Source: an uncultured Bacteroidales bacterium (GTDB lineage Bacteria > Bacteroidota > Bacteroidia > Bacteroidales > DTU049). From it: a stretch of DNA of 64,000 nucleotides. The translations under genes and the position numbers were made by a program. The notes below the pieces were generated by a model. It did no database searches and was not told where the DNA came from. It saw only the letters and a program-made list of their open reading frames with translations. Positions 3,001 through 20,873 of the stretch are shown in pieces (the stretch's first letter is position 1; the number at the start of each line of letters is the position of its first letter). The stretch spans positions 10,772-74,771 of the forward strand of contig CAYRXH010000005.1 in NCBI GenBank assembly GCA_964428185.1. Reading direction: 5' to 3'.

Positions 3001-6000
3001 TGTGAAAAAGGTAGATGTAGATATTGAGGCTAATATGATTGCATTAGATAATGTGATAGATGCATTAGCATTAATAAAAGCTAGGAGAGTATTTGATAGT
3101 GCGATGGGCAAGGTTAAAGAAAATGTACTTGATTTTCGTCAGGATAAAGATGGAGAAAGAATATATGATGAAGATGTACTTACTAATGATGATAAGATAG
3201 CAAATGAAGCTATAAAAGAAGAAATAGAAGTTTTAGAAAATGATGTTAATAAACTTATAGAACAATTAAAAGAAACAGATGTATATAAAAATTCTATAGC
3301 TGAAATTATTGCTTCATCAGAAGCTAAGAGAAAATTAGGTTTTTGGATAACAGCATTAACAGATGGTAATGAACCTTTGACAGCTGGTGTTCAGTTGTTA
3401 AAAAAAGCAAAGATTGGCAATATTGAATATTTGATAAAAGAGCTTATTGGGTTTAATAAGAAACTCATTAGAGAAGAAAATGAACTTAGAGAAAATGGAT
3501 ATAATACAGATAAAATGTCTCAAAGAAATAGAGTATTAATTAATAGTGCTATTGAAGTATTAGAAAGAGCAATATTTAAAGCGTACACAGATGTTGAAAA
3601 TCCTGGTGCAAAAGAATATATTAAAGAATGGATTAAGTTGCAGATGGATATCTATTTTACCCCAGTGATGAATGATAGTAATTCAAAGAATGTTTATTTC
3701 CTTAATTATTTTAGAAATCATATGGCGTATAATATAGTGGACCCATTACATCAAGGAGTGTCAAGTATAAAAGACGCATTTACTGAAGGTAAAAAAGCAC
3801 AAAACTATAATCCATCATATCATTGGATGGTTAATTATTTGCACACTATGATTAATAGTGATATGAGTTTACTTAAAAATAATATAACTTCAGCAATAGA
3901 AAATTTAAATACATATATTCCTTCACTTGAACAACAGTTAGTACAGATTTATATACAATCTGTTTTACAAAAAAAATATATTGATGACTTTGTTATTCAA
4001 TATGATATGGGAAAATATAAGCAAGCTATAGGAATGGTAGATGAGAATGGAGAAGTTGTAACTATAGAAAAAGCTAAGGAAATATATGCAAAGATGCAAG
4101 ATGGAAACTTAAAAACGGAGTATGCAAAGGTTATAGCAAAATATGAATCATCAATGTATCCTAAGTTTGAAAACGATGATACTATGTTTATGAATCATGG
4201 TGTAACATTAGTAGGAAATGCAGGAACTGGTAAAACAGAGATGACAGGATTAAGTGCGTTGATATATGCAATTAATAATGGGTTAAGTCATGTAAAATTA
4301 TCTGTTGTAGCGTCTGATATAGATTTGATAGAAAAGATTACAAATTCTATTAATAGAGTATTTGGAGAATATAATAAAAATAGTGAACAAAAAATAACAT
4401 TTGAAGTTAAAAAATCTTTATTGCAAGATGTATTATCTAAAGATGGTAATTCTGATGATAATTCATACATTATTAATTCATCTGATTTGGTTATTTTAGA
4501 TGAAGCAGGAAGATTGGATGATCAAATGTTGAAAAAAATAAGAAAATTACATAAAGCATCAAATATTAATAAACATACTGGATTTTTATTTTTAGGAGAT
4601 AATCAACAGATACAAGTGCATCCAAAAGATATGTCTGCTCAAGCATCAGGGATGAATGTAGCTATGCAAACAATTCATACTATGCCATTACAATATTCGT
4701 TTAGGAGTGGTAATACTATAATAAGTGAACTGAACAGGTGGTGGGGTGAAAGAGTATTTTCTTCACAATGGGTTGGTAATCTTGTTCCTACGCCTCCTAC
4801 AATGTATTATGAGGAATCATCTGATGGTATAAGAGATGGTGGTAAATATTATTCTTCAATAGATGAAATTGTAGAAGATTATATAAAAAGAAGAAAAGCG
4901 ATTGGTGAAAAAGCAATAATTGTATTTGAAACACAAGAAGCATTTGATGAGTATAGGAAAAAACATCCAGGTGTATTTAGTAATGATATAAGCGGAGTAA
5001 GGGTACTATATAATAATTTGCTTAGCACTGACCCTAATTTGTTACGTTCTATTCAGGGAGGAGAAGTTTCAGAAGTATATGTAGCAATAGAACCTGCAGA
5101 TACTCGTAATAGATTAGTGCCTGTTGATAAGACTGTATATCCAATGATGATGACAACTGCAACATCTAGGGCAATGAGATTTGTTGGTTCAATCATGGAT
5201 AATGCTAAATCATTAAATAAAAAAACAGATAAATCTTTTAAGATATACGAAAAACCTACTTCAGATAAAATTAAAGAAATAGCAGAAGCTAATAAAGAAT
5301 TAATAAGATTAGAAAATAAAAATGAGTTTCCAGACCTTCATCGTATAGTATTTTATAGTAGATATAATTATTTGTATGAAGACGAAGGAAAAGAGGAAGA
5401 CGAAGGAAAAGAGGAAGACGAAGGAAAAGAGGAAGACGAAGGAAAAGAGGAAGACAAAGGAAAAGAGAAAGACAAAGGAAAAGAGAAAGACAAAGGAAAA
5501 AAGGAAGGCGAAGGAAAAGGGAAAAGAAAATCTACAAATAAAAAAACAAAGAAAGAAAATAAAAAGAATTTTATTTTTCAAGAATCAGGATATAAAGCAA
5601 TGGCATATATTAATGGAGAATCAGTATCTGTTACTGTATTATTCCATTATATGGAAGGAGATGTGGAAAAGGTAATGACAGCAGAGCATGGTCCTTTATT
5701 AATTGATAATTTAATTGAAAAAAATCCAATAACAGAAGAAGCATATAGATCAGATACATATGTTAGTAGAGATAATTATAATTATGCAATAACGCCAGGA
5801 GTAGTATCAGAATCTGATTGGAATAAGGTATCATCAAAAAATAAACTTGTATTAGGCAAAATAAAGGCTATTAAGACAAAATTATTACAGGGTGCATATG
5901 ATGGGTCACTTTTAAAAGATTCTTCGTCTAAAGTCATTAAAATAATATATTCAAATATTCCCGAAAATTATGTAAATGCTGTTAGTCATGAATATAAAAA

Positions 6001-9000
6001 AGATGTTGAGGTTAAAACTGTTGGTTTCTATAATCAAATAAAGATTATGGTTAATATTAATATGCTAAATATTCAGAATGAAGAAGAATATAATTTAATT
6101 AATTCAATGGCGGATTCTGAAGGATGGGTTCAAGTAGGAAATGTTTATACATTTAACAATGGTTCATCAGATATATCAGATACTGCTGTTATTGAAAAAA
6201 TGAAATCTGAATATAAGTCATCTTATGTTTCTTCATCAAATACATCTATAGATAAACAATTAGATGGTGTTTATAGGATGGCAAATTATTTTAAAGGAGG
6301 AAAAACATATACATCTGAAGAATTTAAAGATATATTGGGAGATGATCATGTACATATGACACATCATATGGCTTCGTCAGGTATTGTACCAGTCGATGCA
6401 TTAGATATAGATTCAGCAATGAATCCAAGTATGAGTGAAGACAAGAAGATTATTATTACATTTTTGTCGAAAAATAAATTTGGGAGCGATATAGTAGCAA
6501 TTGCAAACACAATTAATTTGAAAGACAAAACAGAAATGGATCATAATTATTTAACTGTACTAAAAGAAGATATCGAAATATTAAAACAGTTAAAATCTGG
6601 CGTAATAACAGATGAAGAATATAAAAAACTTTCAGACAATATAGCATTGCGAATGATGTATATTGCCGCTAATAGGTCTGCTGTTGGTATGACAACGCAA
6701 TTTAATGCAAAATTGAGATTAGATGATGTAACAACATTATCTTACATAAAAGAATATATAGAAAGGCTTGAAGACTTTTTAAAAGATAGTAATAATCATG
6801 AACAATTATATGTTCCTGCATGGGATAAAGGTGAAATAAAATTTAATAATTTATATACAAGAGTGTTTGGTATAACAAATAATATGTTTATAGATGTAAA
6901 TAAATTAGGAGATATGCCAAAACCAAAAGATAGTGGTTCAAGATTAGAAAGTGCTGATTCAAGTTTAAGAGATACTGGTATAGATACAAAAGATACTGAT
7001 TTAGATACAAAACCAAAAGAACCATCTATTGATAAAAGTACAGAATCATTGAAAAAGAAAACAAGGGCATTCATGGAGAGAGATAATTCTGAAGTGGAGT
7101 GGGTTGATATTACAAATGAAATTATTGATTTAGCTGTTTCACAAATAGGTCAAAGTGAATTTGATAATATTGTATGGAATACAGATAAATTTAGAAAGGG
7201 AGTTGTTGGTGCTATATCTAATGCTAAAATGCATATTAAAATGCATAATGGAAAAATTGCAAAAGGTGTTATTCAACATGAGATATTTCATTTAATATTT
7301 AGATATGGTATAACTAATGAATCAAGAGTTAGAGTTATTGAACAATATAAAAGCAACCAAATTGCAAAAGGTAATTATTCTGTAGAAAATAAAACTTACG
7401 ATGATATAGAAGAAATGATGGCAAATGAATTTATGGCGATGGAAACAGAACCTGAGCCTACTTCATTATGGGGAAAACTCGTAAGATTTATGAGAAGATT
7501 GGTAGATCGTTTTATGGCATTTTTTACTGACCAAACTAAAGTATCTTCTTATGATTCCTTAGTAAAATATATTCAAAAAGGGTATTATGCAAATAAAATA
7601 AATGTTGATCGTTCAATTGTTTATGGTGATGCATATATGGAAGAAATAGACAATTCAGAAAACTATGAAGAATATGATAATAGCGAAGATCAATTAAATA
7701 ATGAAGAATTATTAGAAGTATATGAAATGTTTAAAGACAATACTTCTAAAGTAATGATAAGTAAGTTCGCAAAAAATGCTATATTAAATGGTACAATATA
7801 TGGACAAGGTGATGGTTCTAATGTTCATATATCAATAGAAGATTCTATAAATGAACTAAAGCAAGAAATAAAAAATACGTTAAAAAATTCTAATGAAAAT
7901 ACATTTAAAATTAGAAATCCAGAAACAGGGCAGATATATGATATAAGAACTATGTCGCCAACAGAATATAAAAGAATTGTTCCAGAACATTTAAGAGATT
8001 ATGATTTGTATTTTTATGGATTATTTTATGGATTAAGTGATAAAAAACTAGATAACAGGATTAATGCGTTTGTTAAAACATTATTTCCTAATGCCAAGAC
8101 AAAACAAGATTATAATATATTGTTTAGAGAATCTAATTTGAAGCCTGCCATAGAAACAATGTCAAATCCTATACGAGATTTGTTGTCAGGACTTGTTGTT
8201 GAAATGTTTACATATAAAGAGGTAAGAAAGAATACATATTTAGATACAGATAGTGGTTCTAAATTATATTCTAATCTTCCATATATAAATAACAATGCTA
8301 TTTATAAGATTGCAGGTATTATTTCTGAAGCTGTAGCGTTAGGTAGGATTAAAACTACAAATATTGAAGAAGGATTAATTCAGATGGCTAAGGAAATAGA
8401 AAATGCTGCGTTATCAGAAGTTAAAGTTAAAGGTGCTTCTCATTATAATTTTATGGCAGATCAATTGATGACTGTTGCTAAATATTTGTATAATGAAGCA
8501 GACATAAATAATTCTAACCCAACATCTATATGGGGTAGAATGAAAAAAACTGATAATAAATTAGTAAAATCTCATTTAGAAATGTTTGTGGTGGCGTTTA
8601 AGGTTCAAATGCAGTCTATCACAAGAAGAAATGTTGCTTTAATAAATACTAGAACTGGTATAAGATTTAAAGATAGTTCAGAGCTTGGTATATATAAATC
8701 TAATAAAAAGAATTCTATTATTAAAAAAATATATGATAATGGTTCAACATATACAGAAAAGGCTATACAATTATTTAGTAGAACAAGTTTAACACAAAAA
8801 TATCATGTCAGGAAAGATGGAGAAGGTGTATCAATTTATGGAAGAACTACTGATGGGGAACTACCATTAGTAACATTTAAAACTACATATAATGGTGTGG
8901 TGTTGGCAGAATATAATAAAGATATTCAACCTTCATTTATGGCACATTATTTTTCTGAAATATTAAATAGTATAGGGTTTTGGACAAGGACAACTGAAAT

Positions 9001-12000
9001 GTTGGATATTTTGGAAAATTATGTTAAGTATTCGGGTGCTATAGGTAATGTAATGCATAACAGTAGCGGTCGATTTTTGCCAGTTACTGTTGCAGGTTTT
9101 TTAACATCTGTGCAATTAGGTACTCAAGGACAATACATAAAAAATCTTATTAGTAAGATTAATAAGACTACTGCAGGACATCCTGTTAGAGATGGGGGTA
9201 TTGGACAAGCAATAGATTTTGTTTCTGATTTATGGATTCCTGTGTTTAGAAGTAGAGACCCAAAAAATATAAGTAATGGTTTACAAAAGAAAATAGATGA
9301 TTTAATAGGTGTTCTTAAATATAATGATATATATTCAAAAGAACTTGAAGAAAAAATAACACCTGTACTTAATTCAATTAAGGAAATATCTCAGTTTTAT
9401 AGAGAATTAATTGAACAATTTAGAGGTTCAAAAAATTTAACCTCTGATATAGATATAATGAATGTTCCTGAAGAAGATATTAATGTTGAAGAACAAAGAA
9501 ATAATATTACTCCATCTCCTTTGAATTTTGATATTACTTTTAATGTTCTATATGAAGTTTCACATGAGATGAAAATGTCACATAACAAGAATTACAGAAT
9601 TGATGGTACTGTTGATGCATATAATGTTCAAAGTGGTAATTCAGCAAAAGTTGTAAAGCAATTTGTAGGAAGTAGGGCACTTCCAAAAAAATATTCAAGA
9701 TTAAGAAAAGCAAAAGCAGAAGTTCGATATGCTTCAGAAAATAGAAATAGAGCATTAACTATGTTATTTAATCCTCTATTTCCTAGTGATAATGATGATC
9801 CACTGATTGATGTATATCAAATGGCGCATGTAACAGATTATGTAGAATATGGAAGGGGTGTTACTGATATGGAGCCAGGAGATGCTTTAATGGCAGAATT
9901 AACAGCTGTTATTACAGGATTAAAAAAAGATGATGCTATTATAGGTAAAAGTGTGTTTGGAGATAATAATCATCTATTTTTATATGAAGTTGAAGGTAAT
10001 ATGAAATATTATCTCCTTCAAGCATTAGCAGAGACTACTAGCGGAAAACCAATAAATTTAAATGAGAATGTATCATTAAATAATCCTATGAAATATACAT
10101 TGAAATTGTTAAAAAACGCTTTTATGTCATGCCATGTATCTCATGTCAATAGTGTTTTAAATTTATTGGATTCAATGAAGTCATTGCTTGTTAAGACCAA
10201 TATAGAAAGTTCAGCCAAAGGAGAACAAGATTACCTTATTGAGTTAGGTCTTGTAACAGGTCTTATTGAATATGTAGGAAAATTTGCGGTTTATAGTAAG
10301 AATCTTGAAGAAACAGCACACGAATATCATTTCAAGGATGTTATACTGAGAATGAATGACATATTAAAAAGACTTGAAACAATTTATGGAGATTCTAAAA
10401 ATACGTATGATAAGTTATTGGAGATGGGAGCAGTGGATGGTAAAGACATAAAATTATCTAATGGTAAATTAATTTTAGGTACAGCAGCTTCATTTAATAC
10501 ACAATCAGTATATAAAGAGAAAGGAGGATTTGAAAGATTTACAGTAGATGATTATGTATATAATGGTGTGAGCATGTATGGAACAGATAAGACAGAATCA
10601 ATAATGAAGTTCAATCCTACTACCATGAAAGAAGCTACAGATAAATTATGGGGGATGTTTGGGGTAGAAATGAATATTTATCAAAATTATATATATAATG
10701 TATTAAAACAGAATAGAACAAACAAAGATGTTAATAAGTTCTTTAGTTCAATAATTGGAACTGATGGTTCAGGAGTTATATTAAGAAAAGGAACAAATGA
10801 AGCTCCTATTTATAATCCTGGTATGTTTTTTTATTATTTGTATTATCATTTTGTTAATCAAGCAATGGATCATGCAATATCAGGGCATGCATTTAATTAT
10901 ACATCTCCAGAAGTAAATTCAATAAGAAAGAAAATGTTTGAAACTCCAGGAGAAAATGCAACTGCATCAGAAACAGGATTAGGAGAAACATATAAAGTAG
11001 CAATATTAAAAGATACAGAAATACCTGTAATGGTAGAAATGTATAATATGGCTGTAGAAGATTCAGAAAAGGTTACTGTTGAAGAAATAGCAACAATAAC
11101 GGATGGTGCTTCAATAGATACAGCAATAGGTAGAATGTTATTATTGAACAGTTTTGGAAATAAATTATCAGGATTAACAGCTACAGCATTAAAGTTTGCT
11201 TATGCAGACTATAATTGGCATACTGATGAAGTTGTTATTAAAAAAGATAGTCAATTATCTATTACACCTGAAGATGTATTACTATCTCCTGAAAAACATC
11301 TTGCATTAGAATATATTGCTTTAGCTCAATTCGATAAGTCGTTGGCAGATAAATTTATTGAAATATATAGTGATAATGTAAATAAAGGAAAAAGAAGGGA
11401 TCATGCATTTGCTGCTGCTGTGGAATATGCATATAATGTTATACAGGATATGCGAAAATCAAATCCAAAAATAATAGAAAATGTTATTGTTTCAATAACA
11501 CATCCTTCTGCTATTAAAATAGGTGCAAGGAATGTTAATAATATTACTTTGGATAATATTTTAGAAGCAAAACAACTAAATACAATTAGTCTTCATACTG
11601 AAAGTTTAAGAATGATTTTTAATCCTGATAGTGAAATTGAGAATAGCAGAGGTGAAGTATTATTTAAACAGGCATATCATTTAGGAAGCGGAGCACTTAA
11701 TCCTGATGATGCATTACAAATGGAAACTGAATTATCTGTGGCTATATTAAAGTCAATGGAAAAATTAGGGATGAATAAAGATGGTAAGTTGGATGAAGCC
11801 AATTTTACTGCAAAATCTATTATGGAAAAAGCATTGTCGAAAACTAGAACAGGGATGGAACAAACTATGACAGTTGGAACTGCAATAGATTTATTAGATG
11901 CCACAAGAAAACGCTTTGACTTGATTCAATTTGCTAATATAAATTCTAAGGTAATACAGTCATTAAGTAAAATGATAACAGAATCATCTGCTAAAATAAG

Positions 12001-15000
12001 GTTTACTGGAACAGGATATAACCAAGTTGTGGATGTTTTATATAAAGTATATGATGTTACCATATTAAACGATGATGGTTATAAAAGTACAATGACTGTT
12101 ACTAAAAATGGACTTGATACTTTAATGCAAAGATATTCAGCAGATAAATTAACTATTTCAAAGCCAAGAGCATTGAAAGAAATGGGAGTGAAAAATGGAA
12201 AAGCAACGAGAGGTGAAGTTATTGCTCAAACAGTTAATATGCATAAATTTGGTATTAGACCTGGCGAACATTACATGGCAGAGCTTATGCTTATGGATGT
12301 AAAAGTGCAGGATAAAGTACTAACAATTAATATTATGGATATTAGCGAAGATGGAATGTATAATGGGGTAAAAATATTTAATGAAAAAGGTAATATTAAA
12401 GATGTTAAAAATGCAACATTATTGGAAACTGAAGGTTCTAAAGAGTTTGCTAATCATCTTGATAAGATAAATAGTTTTAAAAAATCATTAGATTTACAGT
12501 TATATAGAAAGCCAACATCTACATTATCATCTGGTGGTTTATATGTTGTTGTTGAATTTAGGTCTGATAATAGTGCCATAACATCAAGCAAAAAAATTGC
12601 ATGGGATGATTCTGACTTTGATATTGACCGTTTATATGGATATGAATATTCATTGGATGATTATGTACATGATAAAAAAACTGGGGAAAAAGAATATACT
12701 CATGGAGTGCACTTGGACAATGTATTAACAATGATTAACAAAGCATATGATAATTTAGCAGCAAATGGTGATCTAAGAGTTTCCATATCAACAAAACAAT
12801 TAGAAGAACTTGATGTAGTTAAAAATCACAATAAGATTAAAAGTTCCATAAATACTCCACAATCTTCTCATACAATTAGACAGCAAAATTATGAAGGGAA
12901 AAAAGCTATTGATAGATATGCAAATATCTTAACAACAACTGCAATGTTGATAAAAATTGCAAAGATGGGTGATTTATCAAAAAATATTTTACACAATGAA
13001 TCCTATGATGGGATATTTGAACAGGCTTCAAATATAGTAAGAAATTTTTTCAATGTTAGTAACTATAAAGATATTATTCAAAAAGCTATTTTATTACAGG
13101 CAGCAATTGATAATGTTAAACAAGCTATGCTTGGGAAAACGGGATTAAGTCGTCATGCTACCAATGAGATAACAGCTATGCTTTATGGTAATAATTCAAT
13201 GAAAAGAATTGTTAAATTTATGAATCATCCTTTGGTAAGAGAAATATATGACGAAATAGATCGTAATAATAGATTAACAACTAATGGAAGAATAACAACA
13301 ACATTTATGTTATTGGCAAAGAAAGCATATGTTGAATCTGGTGGAAAGAGTTATTTTTTTGAAAAACCTGATAATATTAATGAAATACAAAATAAATTCT
13401 ATAAACTTAAAACACAAGATCAAATATTAGCACAGTATCACAATATGGTTAAAGGAATAGAATCATCAGAGAAATTGAGTGATGAGAAAAAACAACAGGC
13501 TGTTCAAAGAGCTTTTCTTTATTTACAAAATTCATTAGGTCATGAAAAAGAAATAAGAAAATATGTTTATTATATTTTACAGCAATATTCATTGGCTGGT
13601 GAGATATTTAAAAGAATAACATTTTTGACTGATGTAATGGATGGGGTAAAATCAAAATCATATGAAGAAGATAGTCTTATTAGGTTAGTTGAAAATGCCT
13701 TTGGAAAGCCATTTGATTCGATTGATTTTACAGAAGCAGGATTTGGAAAAGAATTATTGAATCATGATGATGAAGTTGTAGATAGATTAGTAAAATGGGA
13801 GGCTGTTAATAATGATATTTATATTAGAATGGAAGATGAAGTAAAGGGAGCTTATTTATTCATGATAGAACACATAAATAAAATTTTTAAGATAGGTAAT
13901 TTGTTTCAGGTTATGCCATTAATGAGAACTCATGCAATGATCCATCAATATAGAAATAGTATTGTATCTGAAACCATACATACTAATTCAAAGCAAATAG
14001 AAGACATAAGACAGAGGATAATGAAAAATTTAGGAATTGGTATATCTACAAATAAATCTCGTTTTTATGCCTTTCAAAATGCTATAAACAGTATGTTTTT
14101 ATCTGAAGCGTTTAATAAGTTTATTGATTCTCATCCAATATTTTCATCTGGCTTTAATATGGAATATTTTGAACTTATAGAAGGTGGAATTAAAGTAAAT
14201 GAAAACAATGAAGGATATAAAAATATAGATTTGAGGTCAGCTATTACAGGTCGTAGTAGATTTATTAAAAGATTTCCATCTTATATTATGAATTTTGCAG
14301 AATATCTTAATGCACTAAATTTTGCCAATCTTGTGCTTTCACGTGATCCTAAAAATCAACGTGCAATAGAAACAAGAGATATGATTATTTCAAATTTAAA
14401 AAATAGTTATTATGTTAAAGATACTACTGCTATAGAAGAATCACTAAAAAAATTTCAAGGAGATAACTTTTTTAATTATGTAACAGTATATGGTGAAAAT
14501 TATAATCAATTGTTGGTAATAAGAGATTCTGTTCAGTTGAGAGAAAGTGTAACTATGTTTATGTCTATACAGGAAATGTTTAGAGCATTACCCGAAGAAA
14601 TAAGAGATATGTTTGCTATATATGAATTAATATTAAATGAAATGAAGATAAAAAAATCTTCATTATATGATGTTATTGGTCCAGATATATTTGAAAAGTT
14701 AGTTCCTTATTTTCCCACAGCACAACAATTTTTAGAAAATGCTTCTTTTGATACTATATTGGAGAACATAGCACTAAGTGATGATATATTATATGCAGAG
14801 TATAATGAAGATAGTGATACTGTCAAATCAAAGCTCCTTGAACGAATGAAATTGACAGATACTAAAAAAACATATATAAAAAATAAAACAGTAAAAAAAT
14901 ACAATAATAAAGATGAGATTGTTAAATTAGTTGGTATAGATGAAGTAACAGATGAAGGAAGATCATTTGAATTTATTGGTATGCCTGTATGGAATGTTGC

Positions 15001-16327
15001 AGTAAAGAATGCATTGCCACATAGTAAAACAGAAAGGATGGGATCTGTTGATCGTGTAATGAAAAATCTAAATGAAAAACAAATAGCAGAATTAATTACC
15101 AAAGGTTCTACAAGAGTAGAATTATACAGAGGACATAATTATACACCAGATGATAAAAAGATAGAACAAGAGTATGTTACATATATGACTAATGCGGGAA
15201 TACGTGTAGTAATTACTGCAGTGAATGAAACAAATATTTATATAAGAGCAACAGAAGAAGAACAAGTAATTCCAATGGAAATTAAAGTTGAAGAAAAACA
15301 AAAACCAGAAGGAATTGCAACAGTTCATGATAAAGCTAAAGAAGTTGTGGGAATAAATGAATCAATCAATGATAATTTTGTTGGAAAGGGAAATTATTAT
15401 GTACACGTAAGAGATTCTAATTTTAAAAGGCTAAGAGTAACTACAGTATTAAATTCACAAACAGACATTAATAATGTACTTAAAGATGTTTCATATGATG
15501 AAATGAATTTAAGGACTAAACTTGCAATTAGTGATGGCAATATAGCAGACAGAGTGTTAAAACAATTTATACCAATGTTGCCAAATGTAATTCTTGTAGA
15601 AGAATATGCTAAGATTGTAAATTCTCCTATAATTGATGAGTTTGTTAAAGTTGTTAAGGAAGAATATGGTAAGTTAGGCATTGATAATCCAATCATTGAA
15701 TATATTAACAATGATACTATGTTGAGAGCTATAGGTGTAGAATATATTAGAGCTATAATGTTAAGTAGAAAACTTAATGATATACAAAGTATTGTTAATC
15801 CTGGTGGTAGAGTTAGTGTAGTTGGACTTAATGACATATCAGCATTTAAAAAGTATGGCAATATGGAGGTACAAGGAACAACAGATACAGTATTTATAAC
15901 AAGAGAAAAAGGGATGTTTGTTCATTATGTATTAGACTATAAGACATATAAAGCAGATGTTAAAGGTCTTGAATCAGATGCAATGAATAAAGCGATGCAA
16001 CAAGTAAAAACATATTCTGATATGATAACTTCAACATATCAAATTAGACCTGGTGGATATATGGTAATGAAAGTTATGAAGTTATCAGAATTTATTAAAC
16101 AAACTAGAATAAGGTTTGAAGAAGGAAAAGTAAAAGTTGATGGAATACCAAATAATATGGTATTTTTGAAAGCTGAAAAGTATAATTCTATGGATATGAA
16201 AAAACATATAGAAGATATTCAGAAAACAACTAATGAAATCAATGATTTATTAAGTTCAGAAGTTAATGCTCAGGTTATATCAGATATAAAGAAAAATAAT
16301 GGAGAAGCTAATAATATAAATTGCTAA
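1..16327 (+). CDS. Giant multidomain virion-RNAP polyprotein (crAss-type two-barrel RNA polymerase fused to hydrophobic N-terminal segments, SF1 helicase-like ATPase, zincin motif and RecB-like nuclease). The 5' end is probably outside the window.
   Basis: The ORF track gives 125..16327 (5400 aa). The same frame (codons from nt 2) has no stop back to the window edge. Motifs read in the translation: GNAGTGKT, ILDEAG, GDNQQ, HEIFH, RKPTSTLSSGG...DSDFDIDR, D..DYK..QVKTY. Confidence 0.85.
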   Translation, partial: IQNSGDKIKNIYDVDPATLKRYDIDEGKVGEIQQKASSAWNMAGFFNYHNSHSNNVQETPTARKIASATGHKFNYGDYVSTDIYMTDTPGMLFGMRYMTDEELAELRDTKWNKELIKKYGKDLVNYSADGAGEIVTVNGETLLLWKSLTYDENGMPHWEWVDLNNSQIQGRLRPIYGPTPMSRTGFGAFSKGLFNVIAQVPSIVGSAMEQIENAILLGVDEFIDLNPNEYYIESVDDKRPSYLLQNLSGMFMFHNSYRGQLDSSFGSEGFMFSAGNVIGQVAVMIALSAFLTPAAGYLYAGLSAGDSFNQVAKESNVPVDQRLAMYAGSVITALAVERFGRMIGLSPFEQFGVRSGVYKGITQYAKEMAEKRTGITIQRMYEASLKDKKIWQKLYMKNFYKQTFSKYAMYNAMGSVEATLRQSTGEGLEEVMQLPLDNLMYAVHDYVNQEEILYSQIADVEESKRKFLLDYDYRDSMLRNYVRNTFTLGNMSSHFILGFIGGLGGSSVGMAIRKLSKDPSIKNHREMNLLTLYMISKGNIEKIEKAAKELYLGKKGGKAPLSFTHTDGTTPVNIGDKSLNEIAYEAFLQDIKSVKHIIEELKLNSFNINGSMARDKEFLHDVLNLSNEYFIAKTKVEKLNEEIAILRNEKGNESTIQSKEKELADATANMNDVKSKIHEYTTPESNRKPFSKQANDRIRAYAYAEEISKQQLKQLRDNHEKLLKEKKIKPGSKKEKELLHNIALEVMQSMPKYNEVKKTWTSVGENFNKDVLEDHNNSVNELVSIFDSIEISISEALKKADPSVNLSGVRLSSIIEQGNMLLSRIAERKYIDLHKQLAASEGMEYVVDPDLDVSDLTYEAALELRNNINKTFSDKGLRYSNKDDANIDLINILELYAGKGGLVIDGSTQNGQILLDLLSRNGFEFNRISKEIDSGKLPGIEKNINHVDSNISISSPGKEGNKLNFYVADSSKMSIEEILYLRGLMIYNNVRNNILDENGNVKKVDVDIEANMIALDNVIDALALIKARRVFDSAMGKVKENVLDFRQDKDGERIYDEDVLTNDDKIANEAIKEEIEVLENDVNKLIEQLKETDVYKNSIAEIIASSEAKRKLGFWITALTDGNEPLTAGVQLLKKAKIGNIEYLIKELIGFNKKLIREENELRENGYNTDKMSQRNRVLINSAIEVLERAIFKAYTDVENPGAKEYIKEWIKLQMDIYFTPVMNDSNSKNVYFLNYFRNHMAYNIVDPLHQGVSSIKDAFTEGKKAQNYNPSYHWMVNYLHTMINSDMSLLKNNITSAIENLNTYIPSLEQQLVQIYIQSVLQKKYIDDFVIQYDMGKYKQAIGMVDENGEVVTIEKAKEIYAKMQDGNLKTEYAKVIAKYESSMYPKFENDDTMFMNHGVTLVGNAGTGKTEMTGLSALIYAINNGLSHVKLSVVASDIDLIEKITNSINRVFGEYNKNSEQKITFEVKKSLLQDVLSKDGNSDDNSYIINSSDLVILDEAGRLDDQMLKKIRKLHKASNINKHTGFLFLGDNQQIQVHPKDMSAQASGMNVAMQTIHTMPLQYSFRSGNTIISELNRWWGERVFSSQWVGNLVPTPPTMYYEESSDGIRDGGKYYSSIDEIVEDYIKRRKAIGEKAIIVFETQEAFDEYRKKHPGVFSNDISGVRVLYNNLLSTDPNLLRSIQGGEVSEVYVAIEPADTRNRLVPVDKTVYPMMMTTATSRAMRFVGSIMDNAKSLNKKTDKSFKIYEKPTSDKIKEIAEANKELIRLENKNEFPDLHRIVFYSRYNYLYEDEGKEEDEGKEEDEGKEEDEGKEEDKGKEKDKGKEKDKGKKEGEGKGKRKSTNKKTKKENKKNFIFQESGYKAMAYINGESVSVTVLFHYMEGDVEKVMTAEHGPLLIDNLIEKNPITEEAYRSDTYVSRDNYNYAITPGVVSESDWNKVSSKNKLVLGKIKAIKTKLLQGAYDGSLLKDSSSKVIKIIYSNIPENYVNAVSHEYKKDVEVKTVGFYNQIKIMVNINMLNIQNEEEYNLINSMADSEGWVQVGNVYTFNNGSSDISDTAVIEKMKSEYKSSYVSSSNTSIDKQLDGVYRMANYFKGGKTYTSEEFKDILGDDHVHMTHHMASSGIVPVDALDIDSAMNPSMSEDKKIIITFLSKNKFGSDIVAIANTINLKDKTEMDHNYLTVLKEDIEILKQLKSGVITDEEYKKLSDNIALRMMYIAANRSAVGMTTQFNAKLRLDDVTTLSYIKEYIERLEDFLKDSNNHEQLYVPAWDKGEIKFNNLYTRVFGITNNMFIDVNKLGDMPKPKDSGSRLESADSSLRDTGIDTKDTDLDTKPKEPSIDKSTESLKKKTRAFMERDNSEVEWVDITNEIIDLAVSQIGQSEFDNIVWNTDKFRKGVVGAISNAKMHIKMHNGKIAKGVIQHEIFHLIFRYGITNESRVRVIEQYKSNQIAKGNYSVENKTYDDIEEMMANEFMAMETEPEPTSLWGKLVRFMRRLVDRFMAFFTDQTKVSSYDSLVKYIQKGYYANKINVDRSIVYGDAYMEEIDNSENYEEYDNSEDQLNNEELLEVYEMFKDNTSKVMISKFAKNAILNGTIYGQGDGSNVHISIEDSINELKQEIKNTLKNSNENTFKIRNPETGQIYDIRTMSPTEYKRIVPEHLRDYDLYFYGLFYGLSDKKLDNRINAFVKTLFPNAKTKQDYNILFRESNLKPAIETMSNPIRDLLSGLVVEMFTYKEVRKNTYLDTDSGSKLYSNLPYINNNAIYKIAGIISEAVALGRIKTTNIEEGLIQMAKEIENAALSEVKVKGASHYNFMADQLMTVAKYLYNEADINNSNPTSIWGRMKKTDNKLVKSHLEMFVVAFKVQMQSITRRNVALINTRTGIRFKDSSELGIYKSNKKNSIIKKIYDNGSTYTEKAIQLFSRTSLTQKYHVRKDGEGVSIYGRTTDGELPLVTFKTTYNGVVLAEYNKDIQPSFMAHYFSEILNSIGFWTRTTEMLDILENYVKYSGAIGNVMHNSSGRFLPVTVAGFLTSVQLGTQGQYIKNLISKINKTTAGHPVRDGGIGQAIDFVSDLWIPVFRSRDPKNISNGLQKKIDDLIGVLKYNDIYSKELEEKITPVLNSIKEISQFYRELIEQFRGSKNLTSDIDIMNVPEEDINVEEQRNNITPSPLNFDITFNVLYEVSHEMKMSHNKNYRIDGTVDAYNVQSGNSAKVVKQFVGSRALPKKYSRLRKAKAEVRYASENRNRALTMLFNPLFPSDNDDPLIDVYQMAHVTDYVEYGRGVTDMEPGDALMAELTAVITGLKKDDAIIGKSVFGDNNHLFLYEVEGNMKYYLLQALAETTSGKPINLNENVSLNNPMKYTLKLLKNAFMSCHVSHVNSVLNLLDSMKSLLVKTNIESSAKGEQDYLIELGLVTGLIEYVGKFAVYSKNLEETAHEYHFKDVILRMNDILKRLETIYGDSKNTYDKLLEMGAVDGKDIKLSNGKLILGTAASFNTQSVYKEKGGFERFTVDDYVYNGVSMYGTDKTESIMKFNPTTMKEATDKLWGMFGVEMNIYQNYIYNVLKQNRTNKDVNKFFSSIIGTDGSGVILRKGTNEAPIYNPGMFFYYLYYHFVNQAMDHAISGHAFNYTSPEVNSIRKKMFETPGENATASETGLGETYKVAILKDTEIPVMVEMYNMAVEDSEKVTVEEIATITDGASIDTAIGRMLLLNSFGNKLSGLTATALKFAYADYNWHTDEVVIKKDSQLSITPEDVLLSPEKHLALEYIALAQFDKSLADKFIEIYSDNVNKGKRRDHAFAAAVEYAYNVIQDMRKSNPKIIENVIVSITHPSAIKIGARNVNNITLDNILEAKQLNTISLHTESLRMIFNPDSEIENSRGEVLFKQAYHLGSGALNPDDALQMETELSVAILKSMEKLGMNKDGKLDEANFTAKSIMEKALSKTRTGMEQTMTVGTAIDLLDATRKRFDLIQFANINSKVIQSLSKMITESSAKIRFTGTGYNQVVDVLYKVYDVTILNDDGYKSTMTVTKNGLDTLMQRYSADKLTISKPRALKEMGVKNGKATRGEVIAQTVNMHKFGIRPGEHYMAELMLMDVKVQDKVLTINIMDISEDGMYNGVKIFNEKGNIKDVKNATLLETEGSKEFANHLDKINSFKKSLDLQLYRKPTSTLSSGGLYVVVEFRSDNSAITSSKKIAWDDSDFDIDRLYGYEYSLDDYVHDKKTGEKEYTHGVHLDNVLTMINKAYDNLAANGDLRVSISTKQLEELDVVKNHNKIKSSINTPQSSHTIRQQNYEGKKAIDRYANILTTTAMLIKIAKMGDLSKNILHNESYDGIFEQASNIVRNFFNVSNYKDIIQKAILLQAAIDNVKQAMLGKTGLSRHATNEITAMLYGNNSMKRIVKFMNHPLVREIYDEIDRNNRLTTNGRITTTFMLLAKKAYVESGGKSYFFEKPDNINEIQNKFYKLKTQDQILAQYHNMVKGIESSEKLSDEKKQQAVQRAFLYLQNSLGHEKEIRKYVYYILQQYSLAGEIFKRITFLTDVMDGVKSKSYEEDSLIRLVENAFGKPFDSIDFTEAGFGKELLNHDDEVVDRLVKWEAVNNDIYIRMEDEVKGAYLFMIEHINKIFKIGNLFQVMPLMRTHAMIHQYRNSIVSETIHTNSKQIEDIRQRIMKNLGIGISTNKSRFYAFQNAINSMFLSEAFNKFIDSHPIFSSGFNMEYFELIEGGIKVNENNEGYKNIDLRSAITGRSRFIKRFPSYIMNFAEYLNALNFANLVLSRDPKNQRAIETRDMIISNLKNSYYVKDTTAIEESLKKFQGDNFFNYVTVYGENYNQLLVIRDSVQLRESVTMFMSIQEMFRALPEEIRDMFAIYELILNEMKIKKSSLYDVIGPDIFEKLVPYFPTAQQFLENASFDTILENIALSDDILYAEYNEDSDTVKSKLLERMKLTDTKKTYIKNKTVKKYNNKDEIVKLVGIDEVTDEGRSFEFIGMPVWNVAVKNALPHSKTERMGSVDRVMKNLNEKQIAELITKGSTRVELYRGHNYTPDDKKIEQEYVTYMTNAGIRVVITAVNETNIYIRATEEEQVIPMEIKVEEKQKPEGIATVHDKAKEVVGINESINDNFVGKGNYYVHVRDSNFKRLRVTTVLNSQTDINNVLKDVSYDEMNLRTKLAISDGNIADRVLKQFIPMLPNVILVEEYAKIVNSPIIDEFVKVVKEEYGKLGIDNPIIEYINNDTMLRAIGVEYIRAIMLSRKLNDIQSIVNPGGRVSVVGLNDISAFKKYGNMEVQGTTDTVFITREKGMFVHYVLDYKTYKADVKGLESDAMNKAMQQVKTYSDMITSTYQIRPGGYMVMKVMKLSEFIKQTRIRFEEGKVKVDGIPNNMVFLKAEKYNSMDMKKHIEDIQKTTNEINDLLSSEVNAQVISDIKKNNGEANNINC
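809..1012 (+). other. Gly/Ala-rich hydrophobic (membrane-insertion-like) segments in the giant protein
   Basis: FMFSAGNVIGQVAVMIALSAFLTPAAGYLYAGLSAG and LAMYAGSVITALAV. A further segment, HFILGFIGGLGGSSVGMAI, lies at about 1481-1540. These resemble channel-forming ejection or tape-measure segments. Confidence 0.4.
4214..5180 (+). other. SF1 (RecD-like) helicase/ATPase-like module in the giant protein
   Basis: Walker A GNAGTGKT (nt 4214-4237, aa 1364-1371 counted from the ATG at 125). Walker B VILDEAG (DE at 4499-4504). FLGDNQQIQ at about 4595. C-terminal TTATSRAMRFV resembles SF1 motif VI (TRA-type). Confidence 0.6.
5378..5521 (+). repeat. In-frame tandem repeat, 8 x 18 bp, encoding a charged EDEGKE to KDKGKE linker
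   Basis: gaagacgaaggaaaagag occurs 4 times perfectly, followed by 4 progressively diverged copies (E to K substitutions). Protein reads EDEGKEEDEGKEEDEGKEEDEGKEEDKGKEKDKGKEKDKGKKEGEGKG. Confidence 0.95.
7277..7291 (+). other. HExxH zincin metalloprotease motif (HEIFH) in the giant protein
   Basis: VIQHEIFHLIFRYG is followed about 45 aa later by IEEMMANEFMAM, a possible third-ligand Glu (gluzincin-like arrangement). Confidence 0.5.
12614..12628 (+). other. DxDxD catalytic metal-binding motif (DFDID) of a two-barrel RNA polymerase
   Basis: LYRKPTSTLSSGGLYVVVEF...KKIAWDDSDFDIDRLYGY parallels the beta-prime pattern RQPSLH...NADFDGD. aa 4164-4168 counted from the ATG at 125. Confidence 0.75.
15884..16015 (+). 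other. RecB/Cas4-type PD-(D/E)xK nuclease core at the C-terminus of the giant protein
   Basis: GTTD(5254)TVFITREKGMFVHYVLD(5271)YK(5273)TYK, then QQVKTY (QxxxY, 16001-16015). Confidence 0.6.
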
Positions 16328-16331
16328 TTAT

Positions 16332-19300
16332 ATGGAATGTGTATTATATAATGGACAGGTAATATCTCAACAAATATTTGAAGATAAGATAAGGGATGAA
16401 ATATTTAATAGAGCAAAAGCATATAATGCTTCATTATATATTCCTGTTAAAAATGGATTAAATGATACTATATCAAAAATACAAAATGAAACATTAACAG
16501 AAACAGATAGTTATATAAATGAAGATATAAAGAAAAGAGCAGATACAATTGAATTATTGCAATATAAGTATGAGCAGTTATCTGGAACAAATCCTACTAA
16601 TATTACAAAGAGTTTATTAAATTATGTACAACAGAAGTTAAATGTTACTACACAAAAAGCCTTACAGGGGGTATTTAAGCACATTGGAGATAGGAATAAT
16701 GTATTAATTCATTTTCATAATAAAACGCCACAGTATCGAGATAAACAAGTTTTAGGATGGTATTCTGATGGTGATATTAATTATAATGCAAATGAGATTA
16801 CAATAGATACCTATATGCATGAATTTTCTCATTTATGGATGAAGGTATTAAAGTCTAAAGATATAAATACATATGATGAAATTATTCAAAAGGTAGAAAA
16901 TTTTTTAAAATCTGATACTCCTTTTGCTAAACTTGTTAATAAAAGATTAGCATCATATCCTAATGAATCTGTTGCGGAAGAAGCAGCAGCAATAATTGCT
17001 GGATTTGTATCATTGCCTGCTTTTATGAAGTTTGTATCTAATGAATTATCATTAAATGATATGAGTTATTCCGAAATAGTAGAATTATTTGGGGATAATA
17101 TAGCAAATATATATATGCATGTGAGAAATGAATTTGATATGATATCTTCATTGTCTGATATAGATATACCATCATCAAACTTGTATTCAATATTTAATGC
17201 GTTTGTTAATGATATATTTAATGGTAACAATCCTTTTGAAATTTATGGGGAGACATTAGAACAATTAAAAGTACAAGGAGATTTAAATGGGTACATGGAA
17301 AATAATGTTGGTACTGAAAATATTATTACTACTATATCTGACTTTAAGAATGCTTTAAAAAATGATGTTATTAAAAGAAAAGAATTTGAAGAAATGACTT
17401 CTGTTGAGATTGAAGATTTTATCAAGTCTCATTTTAATAAGTTTTCATATAAGAAGATTAATGGACAATGGGTGTGGAGTATGATGGGATATGAAATAGA
17501 AATAGATGTTACTAAAGATGGAATAACACCTGAAAGTATATCTTCTATTAAAAATTTAGTTTTAACAGTTACAGATAAACAATTGGATACATGGATTGAA
17601 GTAGGTAATAAAATTGCAGCAACACAATCAAGCAGAAGGATATCACCTACAAATAATCCTGCTGCTGATGTTATATTAGATACTTTTAAAACAAGATATG
17701 GTAATACAAAGTATAATGTATCAACTGCAAAAAAAATTGCAGATATAATGGGATTTAGTACAGGAGTTCATGATGTATTTAGATTAGAAGATATTGTACA
17801 AAAATATCCTAGTGTTTTTGGTTTTATTGATAAAAATCTTATTAAAGAATTAAATGTTTTAGTAGTATTACATAACGACCCAAGAGGAGATGATCCATCT
17901 GTTCAAATATCATTGTTTTCTCTTGAAAAAATTGTTAATCATATAAGTCCATCAAAGGAAAAAAATATTTTTAATAAATTTGAATCAGTACAAGATAAAG
18001 ATGTTATTAAGCATGGAGCAGCATTAAGAAATAATTCATCATCTATTAATAATTTAATGCTTGGATTTGTTGTTGCTCATTTAGCAAACAATATTAAGAA
18101 TTTACGAATAAGAACAATTGCAACATTAGAGATGACAAGAGAGTTTAGACCTGCTCCAATAGAATTAAATGTATTAATGAAAGCAATTGGATATATAAAA
18201 AATGTTCCTGCATTATTTAATTTGATACAAAATGAAGAAATTAAAAATATTATAGAGAAAGCTAATGATAATAAATATACTTGGCTTAATCAAAGTGCTG
18301 AAGACAAACTTAAAACATTTTACTATAATGGAGTGTATTATTCATCAGATACAGAAGAATTTATAAAAGGGAAATCTACAGAATATTTTTCAATGACCAA
18401 AACTGAAAAGAAAAGTTTTCTTAGAGCAAGAATGAAGTACTTAGAAAATTATTATGGAACATCATCTTCATCTGCACTTATGGCTGACCCTGAATATAAG
18501 TTAATAGCAAATGAATATAAAAGTCTTGACGATATTGGTTATTCAGTTGAGCAGCTGAATCAGGCTGCAGAAAAAGAAATGGGATTTAGACATGAAATAA
18601 TAAAAAAATTAGCATTACCACATAATATAAAATCTGATGTTGTTCAATGGGCAATTAATTCAATACAGACAAATGAAAGATTGGTAATTCATCATTTTAG
18701 GAAATACAGAGATGAATTTCATAAAGTGTTAAAACCTGTATGGAAAAACAGAACAAGTGTATTGCCTAAGATGAGTGATATTGGTTCAAAGACATTTGAA
18801 CATATGTTTATTACAAAAGAACAAGATGGAATAAAATTTAAATTACCATATATATATTTTAATGGTCATGAAATATTTAAAGGCATGACTGAATCACAAA
18901 AAAGAGAAGAACTTAATAGATTGAATTTAACAGAAGATGATTTAGCACTTGGTGATTTTATTATGGAGGCTGTTGAAAATGCTTTGATAGAGGCTGAATT
19001 TATAGACTTACAGAATGCGGCAACAAATGTAGATCAAGCAAATAAAGTTACCAAAGCAGAAGCAAAAGAATCAATATTAAAAAAAGGATGGAGAAAAGAA
19101 ACAGGACAAGTATTTGTAATTTCAAAATCAGCTTCTGAATTAACAGCATCTGGCAAAATTAAAGCAGGTTATGAAAGATTTAAACAACAATCTGTTGATA
19201 TAAATACAATATTTGAGGATCAAGTTTTAGTTGAAGAATTAGGAACGCTAAGAAATACATTTAGTAATCAATTGTCCCATGATATATTATTACAAATGGC

Positions 19301-20873
19301 AGGAATAGAGTATCAAGGTGACAATAAATATAGGTTATTTGACAAAGAAAAAAATGATAGAATGTCAACTAATCTAGAAACAATTACTAATTATGCTGTG
19401 ATGTCATCTATAAGACAATTAATACACTCAAGAGAATCTGAATTTGTATATAAAGCAGCATTAGCTATGATAAATGATATGTGGCAATTTGCAGCAAGTA
19501 ATGATAAAAAATCATATGAAAGATTAAAAGAATATTTAGAAGAATATTGGGAATCAATGGTTAAAGGAAAAAGAATTGATGGAGAACTAACCTTATGGAT
19601 GGGGAAAAAATCTCCTAAAGTTAATATTATGGCAGGAGTTGATATGGCTACACGTGCTATGAGTTTTTCATTAATAGCATATAGACCTAAATTAGTATTA
19701 AAGTCATTTTCATATAATTTATTTAATGCTATTTTATGGGGGGCTGGTAATATATTTGGAAGGGGAGAAGGATTGCCTACATTAACAGACATAATGAAAG
19801 CGTCTGCTATATATGCTAGGGAATATGAAAGAGTTGTACATTGGGCTTCTTTTTATCAAATTGCAAATGCAAGCGCATATGAAACATTAAATTCTGCTGT
19901 GCAAAATGTATCTAAAAAATATGCGCTTAATGATCAAGTTGGATATATCGCATTGCAATTTACTGATGAAGCATGGAGACATATTGTAATGTTATCTTAT
20001 TTAATAAAAGATGGTTCATGGGATGCTCATACATACCATATAGACGAAAATGGAAATGGTGTTATAAAGTATGATGAAAAAAATGATAAAAGATTGTATG
20101 AAGATGGAGTATTAACAGAAAAAGGAAAAGTTTTAAAAGCAGCTATAAAAAATGACCTTGTAGAGCAAGGATTAATGGATGAATCAGATACAGAATTAAA
20201 ATATGGTTATGATATGCAGGAAGCTGTTATGATGAAAACTTTAGCGGATAAATGGGTTATAGGTTCTATGTCAGCTGATGCTGCAGCAAACATAACACAT
20301 GATATTTTAGGAAGACAATTTGCTAAATTCAGAAGATTTGTATTTGATAATTTAGCAAATATGGGTTTAGGAACAGACCCTGGATTGTCTAGAGTATTAT
20401 CAAGAAGGGTTGTTAAACAAGATGAAGAAGGTAATTATTATTCTGTAAAAGAGATGAGAGAGGTTGTGGGTGTTATACAATCTTGGATACAAGCATTTAA
20501 TGTATTTAAAGAACACAGATTTAAAGGATTTTCAGAATTACAAAATTTATCAGAAGCAAGTAAAGCTAATTTATCTCGTTCATTATTATGGATAGTATTA
20601 TTGCTAATTTTAAAAGCATTATTTGGTAAATTTAGAGATGAAGATGAAAGAAGAAGATATTATCTTGACTTACATAGATGGTTAATAGATACAAGTGTAT
20701 GGAACAATGTATCAGATATAGAAAGGTCTCCATTTCCAATGTATGGAGCATTTCAAAGATTTATAGAAACAGGAATTAATGATCCTATTAGATTATTATA
20801 TTATTTACCAGGAGGAGGATTAGTAAAAGATACACAAGAAATTATTAATTCATTTGAAAAAGAAAATAAATAA
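16332..20873 (+). CDS. Large virion/ejection-associated protein (1513 aa) with an N-terminal HExxH zincin motif and a C-terminal hydrophobic segment
   Basis: The ORF starts 4 nt after the giant ORF stop. YMHEFSHLWMK is followed about 50 aa later by VAEEAAAIIAGF. A TM-like segment LLWIVLLLILKALFG lies near the C-terminus. Confidence 0.8.
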   Translation: MECVLYNGQVISQQIFEDKIRDEIFNRAKAYNASLYIPVKNGLNDTISKIQNETLTETDSYINEDIKKRADTIELLQYKYEQLSGTNPTNITKSLLNYVQQKLNVTTQKALQGVFKHIGDRNNVLIHFHNKTPQYRDKQVLGWYSDGDINYNANEITIDTYMHEFSHLWMKVLKSKDINTYDEIIQKVENFLKSDTPFAKLVNKRLASYPNESVAEEAAAIIAGFVSLPAFMKFVSNELSLNDMSYSEIVELFGDNIANIYMHVRNEFDMISSLSDIDIPSSNLYSIFNAFVNDIFNGNNPFEIYGETLEQLKVQGDLNGYMENNVGTENIITTISDFKNALKNDVIKRKEFEEMTSVEIEDFIKSHFNKFSYKKINGQWVWSMMGYEIEIDVTKDGITPESISSIKNLVLTVTDKQLDTWIEVGNKIAATQSSRRISPTNNPAADVILDTFKTRYGNTKYNVSTAKKIADIMGFSTGVHDVFRLEDIVQKYPSVFGFIDKNLIKELNVLVVLHNDPRGDDPSVQISLFSLEKIVNHISPSKEKNIFNKFESVQDKDVIKHGAALRNNSSSINNLMLGFVVAHLANNIKNLRIRTIATLEMTREFRPAPIELNVLMKAIGYIKNVPALFNLIQNEEIKNIIEKANDNKYTWLNQSAEDKLKTFYYNGVYYSSDTEEFIKGKSTEYFSMTKTEKKSFLRARMKYLENYYGTSSSSALMADPEYKLIANEYKSLDDIGYSVEQLNQAAEKEMGFRHEIIKKLALPHNIKSDVVQWAINSIQTNERLVIHHFRKYRDEFHKVLKPVWKNRTSVLPKMSDIGSKTFEHMFITKEQDGIKFKLPYIYFNGHEIFKGMTESQKREELNRLNLTEDDLALGDFIMEAVENALIEAEFIDLQNAATNVDQANKVTKAEAKESILKKGWRKETGQVFVISKSASELTASGKIKAGYERFKQQSVDINTIFEDQVLVEELGTLRNTFSNQLSHDILLQMAGIEYQGDNKYRLFDKEKNDRMSTNLETITNYAVMSSIRQLIHSRESEFVYKAALAMINDMWQFAASNDKKSYERLKEYLEEYWESMVKGKRIDGELTLWMGKKSPKVNIMAGVDMATRAMSFSLIAYRPKLVLKSFSYNLFNAILWGAGNIFGRGEGLPTLTDIMKASAIYAREYERVVHWASFYQIANASAYETLNSAVQNVSKKYALNDQVGYIALQFTDEAWRHIVMLSYLIKDGSWDAHTYHIDENGNGVIKYDEKNDKRLYEDGVLTEKGKVLKAAIKNDLVEQGLMDESDTELKYGYDMQEAVMMKTLADKWVIGSMSADAAANITHDILGRQFAKFRRFVFDNLANMGLGTDPGLSRVLSRRVVKQDEEGNYYSVKEMREVVGVIQSWIQAFNVFKEHRFKGFSELQNLSEASKANLSRSLLWIVLLLILKALFGKFRDEDERRRYYLDLHRWLIDTSVWNNVSDIERSPFPMYGAFQRFIETGINDPIRLLYYLPGGGLVKDTQEIINSFEKENK
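16818..16832 (+). other. HExxH zincin motif (HEFSH) in the 1513-aa protein
   Basis: DTYMHEFSHLWMKVL, aa 163-167. It has the same HExxH...EE-x-A-A arrangement as at nt 7277. Confidence 0.5.

Follow-up and report, generated by a model that had tools for sequence, protein, structure and literature searches.

The giant proteins encoded in the transcription block of crAss-like phages include PD-(D/E)xK nuclease (PDDEXK) domains, with one to three such nucleases being typical per phage (Yutin et al. 2021, PMC7886860), and a 2023 review repeats the statement. For crAss001, mass spectrometry has shown that gp47, gp49 and gp50 are carried as cargo in the virion (PMC10172136). Elsewhere the block takes the form of fused polyproteins, which a zincin may cleave, and gp66, the virion RNA polymerase (vRNAP) of phi14:2, accepts in vitro no template other than single-stranded or denatured DNA (both Drobysheva et al. 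2021). The subject here is a giant open reading frame (ORF) at the start of a 64,000-nucleotide stretch, termed the window, that was deposited as part of an uncultured Bacteroidales bacterium (NCBI GenBank assembly GCA_964428185.1, contig CAYRXH010000005.1, positions 10,772 to 74,771 of the forward strand). The frame lies on the + strand (1..16327; 5400 amino acids (aa) from the ATG at nucleotide (nt) 125), and motif, profile and fold comparisons indicate that its tail is very probably a RecB-family PD-(D/E)xK domain.

The reading preferred here, in which we have good confidence, is that the giant is a fused crAss-type virion transcription-block protein in which a helicase-like domain, a zincin and an RNA polymerase (RNAP) are followed by a C-terminal RecB-family nuclease domain of about 250 aa, of the kind known from other crAss-like phages. 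Domain identity, motif conservation and position come directly from the comparisons below, and from these we infer the remainder.

Motifs of the C-terminal domain

The domain extends over approximately 15407..16159 on the + strand (about aa 5095-5345), the evidence for it coming from Pfam, hhalign, AlphaFold2 (AF2) and Foldseek results, and the end region of the giant reads ...NMEVQGTTDTVFITREKGMFVHYVLDYKTYKADVKGLESDAMNKAMQQVKTYSDM... (aa numbering of the giant is counted from the ATG at 125 throughout, except where its total is stated as 5499 aa). Motif II is GTTD, G5251-x-x-D5254 (15875..15886), whose Gly and Asp are invariant in 12 aligned domains. Motif III, D5271-Y-K5273 (15935..15943) and then T5274, falls within LDYK (aa 5270-5273, nt 15932-15943); in the same 12 domains its Lys is invariant and its Asp nearly so. 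Motif IV, Q5293-x-x-x-Y5297 (16001..16015), is part of QQVKTY (aa 5292-5297, nt 15998-16015) and is in the helix that comes after strand 3, its Gln being invariant in the 12 domains and its Tyr kept in an ortholog, P0003, dealt with below. An additional acidic residue, D5237 (15833..15835), is in a strand 17 residues before motif II and is also kept in P0003 (D212 in that alignment). Its spacing to motif II is that of a Glu in ProJPt-Bp1 gp16, with E or D present in four of the five sequences compared, and a role in metal binding may be proposed for it. The G(T/S)xxH or D that forms motif I in relatives has as its counterpart, in the window domain and P0003, a conserved YIR(A/S)IM helix, in a part of the alignment that is unstable. 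Following the domain is a predicted helical tail (16160..16327, + strand), ending in ..NINC and then TAA, for which AF2 confidence is low (predicted local distance difference test, pLDDT, 36-45).

In a protein of this size the bare D...DxK...QxxxY pattern, taken alone, is no more than what chance provides. Searched as D-x(8-30)-[DE]xK-x(10-45)-QxxxY, it occurs a mean of 4.5 times per shuffled copy of the 5400-aa giant, and 89% of the shuffled copies have one match or more. With a GxxD prefix the mean falls to 0.3 per shuffled protein, and to 0.037 when DxK[TS] is stipulated as well; this strict form is present once only in the giant. Most of the chance matches to the loose motif in the giant itself come from a low-complexity hexapeptide run of DEGKEE / DKGKEK repeats in its N-terminal half (aa ~1753-1805, window 5381-5540).

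Profile and fold comparisons

For comparison by profile, 12 nuclease domains of crAss large proteins were gathered from Steigviridae, Suoliviridae and unclassified records. The window domain and P0003 together, when set against these in hhalign, reached a score of 47.8 over motifs II-IV (Prob 89.7, E 1.9e-6). Among 150 column shuffles the maximum was 20.6 (mean 12.6, standard deviation 2.1), and the reversed query scored 14.6. As single sequences, P0003 scored 39.6 and the window domain 24.6 (E 0.007), both in the same register. What is shared with the crAss domains goes beyond the catalytic motifs, to residues such as the E-x-G and I-P positions after strand 4. The top Pfam match of the window domain is PDDEXK_1 (PF12705), with E 0.0013-0.0055 and 17.1-19.2 bits. 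Sequence searches of the PDB, both with the single sequence and with a profile, gave no relevant match; a two-sequence hidden Markov model found nothing in seven crAss genomes; and six-frame searches of the source assembly, run with PF12705 and phrog_298, brought up only the AddAB-like genes of the host and not the domain.

An AF2 model was obtained from a 12-row alignment rebuilt from IMG/VR loci, known family members being included. It has a mean pLDDT of 63.7 and a predicted TM-score (pTM) of 0.56, with the core at pLDDT 77-88, and the topology predicted for that core is a-b-b-b-a-b: helices, then three strands on which GxxD and DxK lie, then the helix with QxxxY, and finally strand four. 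In model numbering the strands with the catalytic Asp and DxK are 72-86 and 89-99, and the motif IV helix is 108-130. With this model as query, Foldseek retrieved from the PDB AddA (1.4e-4), Cas4, RecE, MGME1 and RecB (range E 1e-4 to 1e-2), as well as SSO0001, AdnA and Dna2. BFVD contributed 44 models of viral proteins with E<=1e-3; almost every one is a PD-(D/E)xK nuclease, and pieces of crAss giants are among them.

With AddA/AddB, RecB, AdnAB, RecE, MGME1 and Dna2 the window domain has in common the predicted a-b-b-b-a-b core, the motif II Asp, DxK(T) and QxxxY. Unlike the nucleases of AddAB and RecBCD, it is not on a superfamily 1 helicase motor; the only helicase-like domain of the giant is some 3800 residues upstream. 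From Cas4 and the AddB-type nucleases with a four-Cys Fe-S cluster, with which it shares superfamily and catalytic motifs, it differs in being without a Cys cluster. Assignment of the tail domain to the Cas4 type was accordingly rejected, the sole Cys being the last residue of the protein. An earlier note on the window, made from its sequence alone, had called the domain RecB/Cas4-type, and the RecB-family half of that label is sustained by the profile comparison, by the match of P0003 to phrog_298 and by the fold search, while the Cas4 half is not. The motif residues that it picked out, with D5254 and K5273 numbered from the ATG at 125, were correctly placed (nt 15875-16015), and the PD-(D/E)xK fold for which it proposed a search was indeed retrieved by Foldseek (AddA, Cas4, RecE, MGME1 and RecB), on a model of moderate quality.

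The single ortholog

An exhaustive phmmer search with the last 500 aa of the giant against 1.84 billion protein representatives yielded a single relative, P0003, of 3011 aa (E 3.9e-20). It derives from a 14-kb Logan contig (SRR34579708), an independent assembly, and aligns from near its first residue to its last with aa 2514-5400, the C-terminal 2887 aa of the giant. P0003 is, in effect, an RNAP-plus-tail protein without the giant's N-terminal half. Since the continuity of RNAP and nuclease is the same in this independent assembly, the fusion in the window is not an assembly error. At 26% identity between the two proteins D5237, G5251, D5254, D5271, K5273, Q5293 and Y5297 are all kept, so that the conservation in orthologs on which the earlier note made its proposal depend is borne out in the sole ortholog available. 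The tail of P0003 matches phrog_298, annotated 'exonuclease', at E 5.6e-7; PDDEXK_1 is the top Pfam match of its 232-aa tail (E 0.0081, 16.6 bits), and a 384-aa construct did not match that family.

Other routes to relatives yielded none. A word-indexed protein search returned nothing for the tail of the giant, and for P0003 only itself. Against 50,697 phage records, tblastn and megablast gave no match for the C-terminus, for the RNAP core or for 12 kb of DNA, and nothing came from scanning IMG/VR, whether the query was the tail or the two-sequence alignment; a five-sequence alignment was too divergent for use in a scan.

Domain order in crAss-like relatives

Homologous domains were found in crAss001 gp47, cr1_1 gp77, ProJPt-Bp1 gp16, DAC15 gp078, the RNAP subunit of IAS virus and others. 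phrog_298 is matched by crAss001 gp47 (E 8e-8 and 2e-9), by cr1_1 gp77 (1e-15) and by ProJPt-Bp1 gp16 too, the last having a domain above the Pfam cut-off (E 4.6e-9), and the giant of cr4_1 is annotated 'exonuclease' in its GenBank record. The earlier note knew of no description of a nuclease covalently attached to a virion RNAP; these homologs (crAss001 gp47, cr1_1 gp77, ProJPt-Bp1 gp16, DAC15) and the report of Yutin et al. 2021 dispose of the novelty thereby implied. The domain family is already published in crAss-like phages, and what is new here is a very divergent example and a shifted gene boundary, not a new class of system.

The shift is best appreciated from the order of the modules. 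In crAss001, gp47 has the nuclease (1783, aa ~1783-1845) and then the zincin (2157), with the polymerase motif, DFDVD, in gp50. In cr1_1 the zincin (2001) and DFDVD (3445) are both in gp76, and the nuclease (aa ~805) is in the next gene, gp77. In ProJPt-Bp1, gp17 has DNDGD (2373), and the next gene, gp16, has the nuclease N-terminally, at ~160-310. In the window the zincin, DFDID and the nuclease are followed by TAA and, 4 nt later and in a different frame, by the ATG of the next transcription-block ORF (16332..20873, + strand, 1513 aa). The order polymerase then nuclease is thus common to the window, cr1_1 and ProJPt-Bp1; only the stop codon has moved and is now after the nuclease. Because the stop codon has this place, in the window as in P0003, translation of the RNAP polypeptide runs on into the nuclease, which becomes its tail.

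In comparison with the nuclease domains of crAss large proteins generally, the window domain is of the same family, has the same GxxD, DxKT and QxxxY, and is in the same virion cargo gene block beside a DFDxD polymerase and a zincin; it differs from those of crAss001, cr1_1 and ProJPt-Bp1 in being the extreme C-terminus of the DFDID polypeptide and in having only 12-20% identity to them. With the fused crAss-like virion RNAP polyproteins, in which the equivalents of phi14:2 gp65-gp66-gp67 are in one ORF, the giant shares the combination of zincin and RNAP modules, and packaging and ejection are presumed for both; it is set apart by extreme divergence and by ending in a nuclease domain.

Two features of the relatives may be mentioned for their own sake. 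In the MT835470-like clade (14 IMG/VR contigs of 80-151 kb; L028 / L109-L122) a Leu replaces the acidic residue of (D/E)xK, the copy reading GSIDLIV...HLYLFKSS...YQLGFY, and on this sequence the nuclease copy there may be inactivated. The nuclease-domain frames of L026 (cr4_1), L027 (MT835645), L075 and L076 have one to seven in-frame stop codons, as would be expected if a stop codon is reassigned there, a phenomenon known from some crAss-like phages.

Possible roles and competing explanations

Several points weigh against the reading of the tail as a crAss-type RecB-family nuclease. No clear counterpart of the motif I His of RecB-like nucleases is seen in the window domain, whose best Pfam score is below the curated gathering cut-off of PF12705 (19.2 vs 22 bits); the domain's own sequence has no direct match to phrog_298, and its hhalign score by itself is only the 24.6 given above. 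AF2 with just the two sequences (375 aa) failed, with a pLDDT of 33, and the later model, which depended on the addition of known family members to the alignment, is moderate, with TM-scores of about 0.35. The case also leans on one ortholog. As to position, equivalence with cr1_1 and ProJPt-Bp1 is one of domain order alone, since no similarity was found between the downstream 1513-aa ORF and gp16 or gp77.

On the crAss-type reading, the domain is likely to be an active metal-dependent DNA nuclease, because D5254, D5271, K5273, Q5293 and Y5297 are intact at so low an identity between the orthologs. From the homology to the cargo proteins of crAss001 and phi14:2, we are inclined to think that virions would carry the domain and eject it together with the RNAP, the zincin having perhaps cleaved the polyprotein first. 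What the domain might do at the start of infection is more speculative. It could conceivably resect or nick the entering genome and so provide a single-stranded template for the polymerase or, with the same rather low probability, it could cut host DNA. The earlier note had put forward comparable roles, in that the nuclease could attack the DNA of the host or process the incoming genome end. The attraction of template exposure comes from the restriction of the phi14:2 vRNAP to single-stranded or denatured DNA in vitro. A more elaborate form of the idea, and a still more doubtful one, has the nuclease as a template-preparation partner that, once ejected, would resect or nick the leading end of the entering genome and so make the single-stranded DNA that crAss-type vRNAPs need, with the polymerase-nuclease order reflecting a coupling that is covalent here, and the terminal Cys perhaps tethering the next cargo protein.

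The competing explanation that survives best, though an unlikely one, is that the PD-(D/E)xK fold is present and catalytically dead or repurposed, as a module for binding DNA or single-stranded DNA, as a packaging signal or as a tail with a structural part to play in the RNAP cargo. The unrecognisable motif I His and the weak profile scores can be taken this way, the Leu in the MT835470-like clade suggests that the family tolerates loss of catalysis, and a long helical tail with a conserved terminal Cys suggests a linking role. However, GxxD, DxK and QxxxY are all kept between two orthologs that are only 26% identical, and the 12 domains show no variation at G, D, K or Q, which is the pattern expected under selection for catalysis.

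Virion-carried polymerases with a nuclease of this superfamily do exist elsewhere, in RNA viruses: the bunyavirus L protein and influenza PA have a PD-(D/E)xK cap-snatching endonuclease, N-terminal in position and acting on RNA. The likeness to the giant is that a PD-(D/E)xK nuclease is joined to a virion polymerase, with no homology implied beyond the superfamily. That the window domain is, comparably, an endonuclease that acts on RNA in association with the polymerase, and would process, cleave or terminate transcripts, might be argued from the covalent link to an RNA polymerase and from the presence of a bunyavirus cap-snatching endonuclease, 7ewu_A (E 0.03) among the weaker Foldseek matches. 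It is nevertheless very improbable, as the closest matches, by structure and by profile, are exo- and endonucleases of DNA (AddA, RecE, Cas4, MGME1, RecB and phage exonucleases), bacterial mRNAs are without caps, and in most relatives the domain and the polymerase are on separate polypeptides. A chance motif match in a 5400-aa protein with no nuclease fold, for which the frequency of the bare pattern in shuffles, the absence of a Pfam score above cut-off and of a PDB sequence match, and the failure of the first AF2 model might all be cited, is the least credible of the three and is largely refuted by the distance of the hhalign score from its shuffles, the match of P0003 to phrog_298, the dominance of RecB-family nucleases in the Foldseek lists and the residues outside the catalytic motifs that are common to crAss domains.

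Other modules of the giant protein

The frame of the giant is open from nt 2 of the window to the TAA at 16325-16327. In the contig it begins at an ATG that precedes the window by 173 nt, to give 5499 aa, and this is likely the true start, the ATG at 125 being internal. The beginning of the frame at the upstream ATG (contig coordinates 10599-10660) encodes MR and then 16 consecutive Asn.

A helicase-like P-loop NTPase domain is at 4193..4615 (+ strand, aa 1357-1497; Pfam ResIII E 8e-6, DEAD 6e-5, AAA_30 6e-5). The zincin-type motif, HEIFH, is at 7277..7291 (+ strand, aa 2385-2389), in a module that the giant shares with crAss001 gp47 and cr1_1 gp76. By BLASTP, aa 2379-2488 match the zincin region of cr1_1 gp76 at E 6.5e-6, and the zincin region of the giant matches crAss001 gp47 at E 3.7e-4. 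The catalytic motif of the crAss-type RNA polymerase, DFDID, is at 12614..12628 (+ strand, aa 4164-4168). Its counterpart is DYDID in P0003, DFDVD in crAss001 gp50 and cr1_1 gp76, and DFDID in phi14:2 gp66; direct similarity to crAss001 gp50 around DFDID is weak (E 0.05-0.37). By its DFDxD motif, together with the crAss-like structural genes in the genome, the giant can be assigned as a crAss-type virion RNA polymerase, and its form is that of the fused transcription-block 'polyprotein' described by Drobysheva et al. No second nuclease of the gp47 type was found, by motif or by profile, in the N-terminal half.

The giant has only two Cys in its 5499 aa, at positions 3435 and 5499, the latter being the last residue, and there are none in the core of the nuclease domain. 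In P0003 the one Cys is the last residue but one, and in the 1513-aa ORF the only Cys is residue 3 (MEC...). Five consecutive putative cargo proteins (181, 588, 765, 5499 and 1513 aa; 8546 aa in total), encoded by window 1-20873 and the contig upstream (contig coordinates 5904-31644), have only three Cys between them, and other ORFs of the phage have ~1% Cys. The distribution suggests a chain of ejected proteins that would be essentially Cys-free, with a possible tail-to-head disulfide from the giant to the next protein.

The stand-alone nuclease gene

A second PD-(D/E)xK nuclease, Cas4-like and of 328 aa, is encoded on the - strand in the replication block (33757..34743). In its 55 homologs G109/F112/E113 (GxxFE), D195, D212-x-K214 and Q238...Y242 are invariant, and the Cas4-like set of four Cys, C85, C306, C309 and C319, is nearly so. 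Pfam PDDEXK_1 is matched by 8 of the 55 homologs, with a best E of 5.9e-7. The 328-aa protein itself has no Pfam, PHROG or NCBIfam match, and standard annotation would give 'hypothetical'.

The earlier note regarded the tail of the giant and this protein as two domains of one kind. That a second PD-(D/E)xK signature is present in the stand-alone gene is correct; the sameness of kind is not upheld. Alignment of the tail domain with the 328-aa family by hhalign, a comparison that the note had suggested, scored 20.4 and disclosed no detectable close relation, the best shuffle score being 20.6, albeit from a different profile, that of the crAss nuclease-domain set. Close paralogy of the phage's two nucleases was rejected on that score, which is at shuffle level.

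The contig

The phage contig is 77.8 kb long, has a G+C content of 28% and is without terminal overlap. The metagenome-assembled genome in which it is binned is 2.85 Mb, its remaining contigs being at ~38% G+C. The contig is probably a co-binned incomplete phage genome rather than a prophage. PHROGs of the crAss type are matched by its terminase (TerL), by the portal and by the major head protein, and TerL has ~25% identity to those of Suoliviridae and other Crassvirales; judged from these genes, the window belongs to a very divergent crAss-like phage.

Implications

In a lineage so divergent that public data yield one ortholog, the nuclease is kept with its catalytic residues intact, and its position directly after the polymerase persists despite the moved gene boundary. 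Its retention and the persistence of its position speak for a functional tie between the domain and the transcription machinery that is injected. The question on which the domain bears is how the virion RNA polymerases of crAss-like phages reach their template in the cell.

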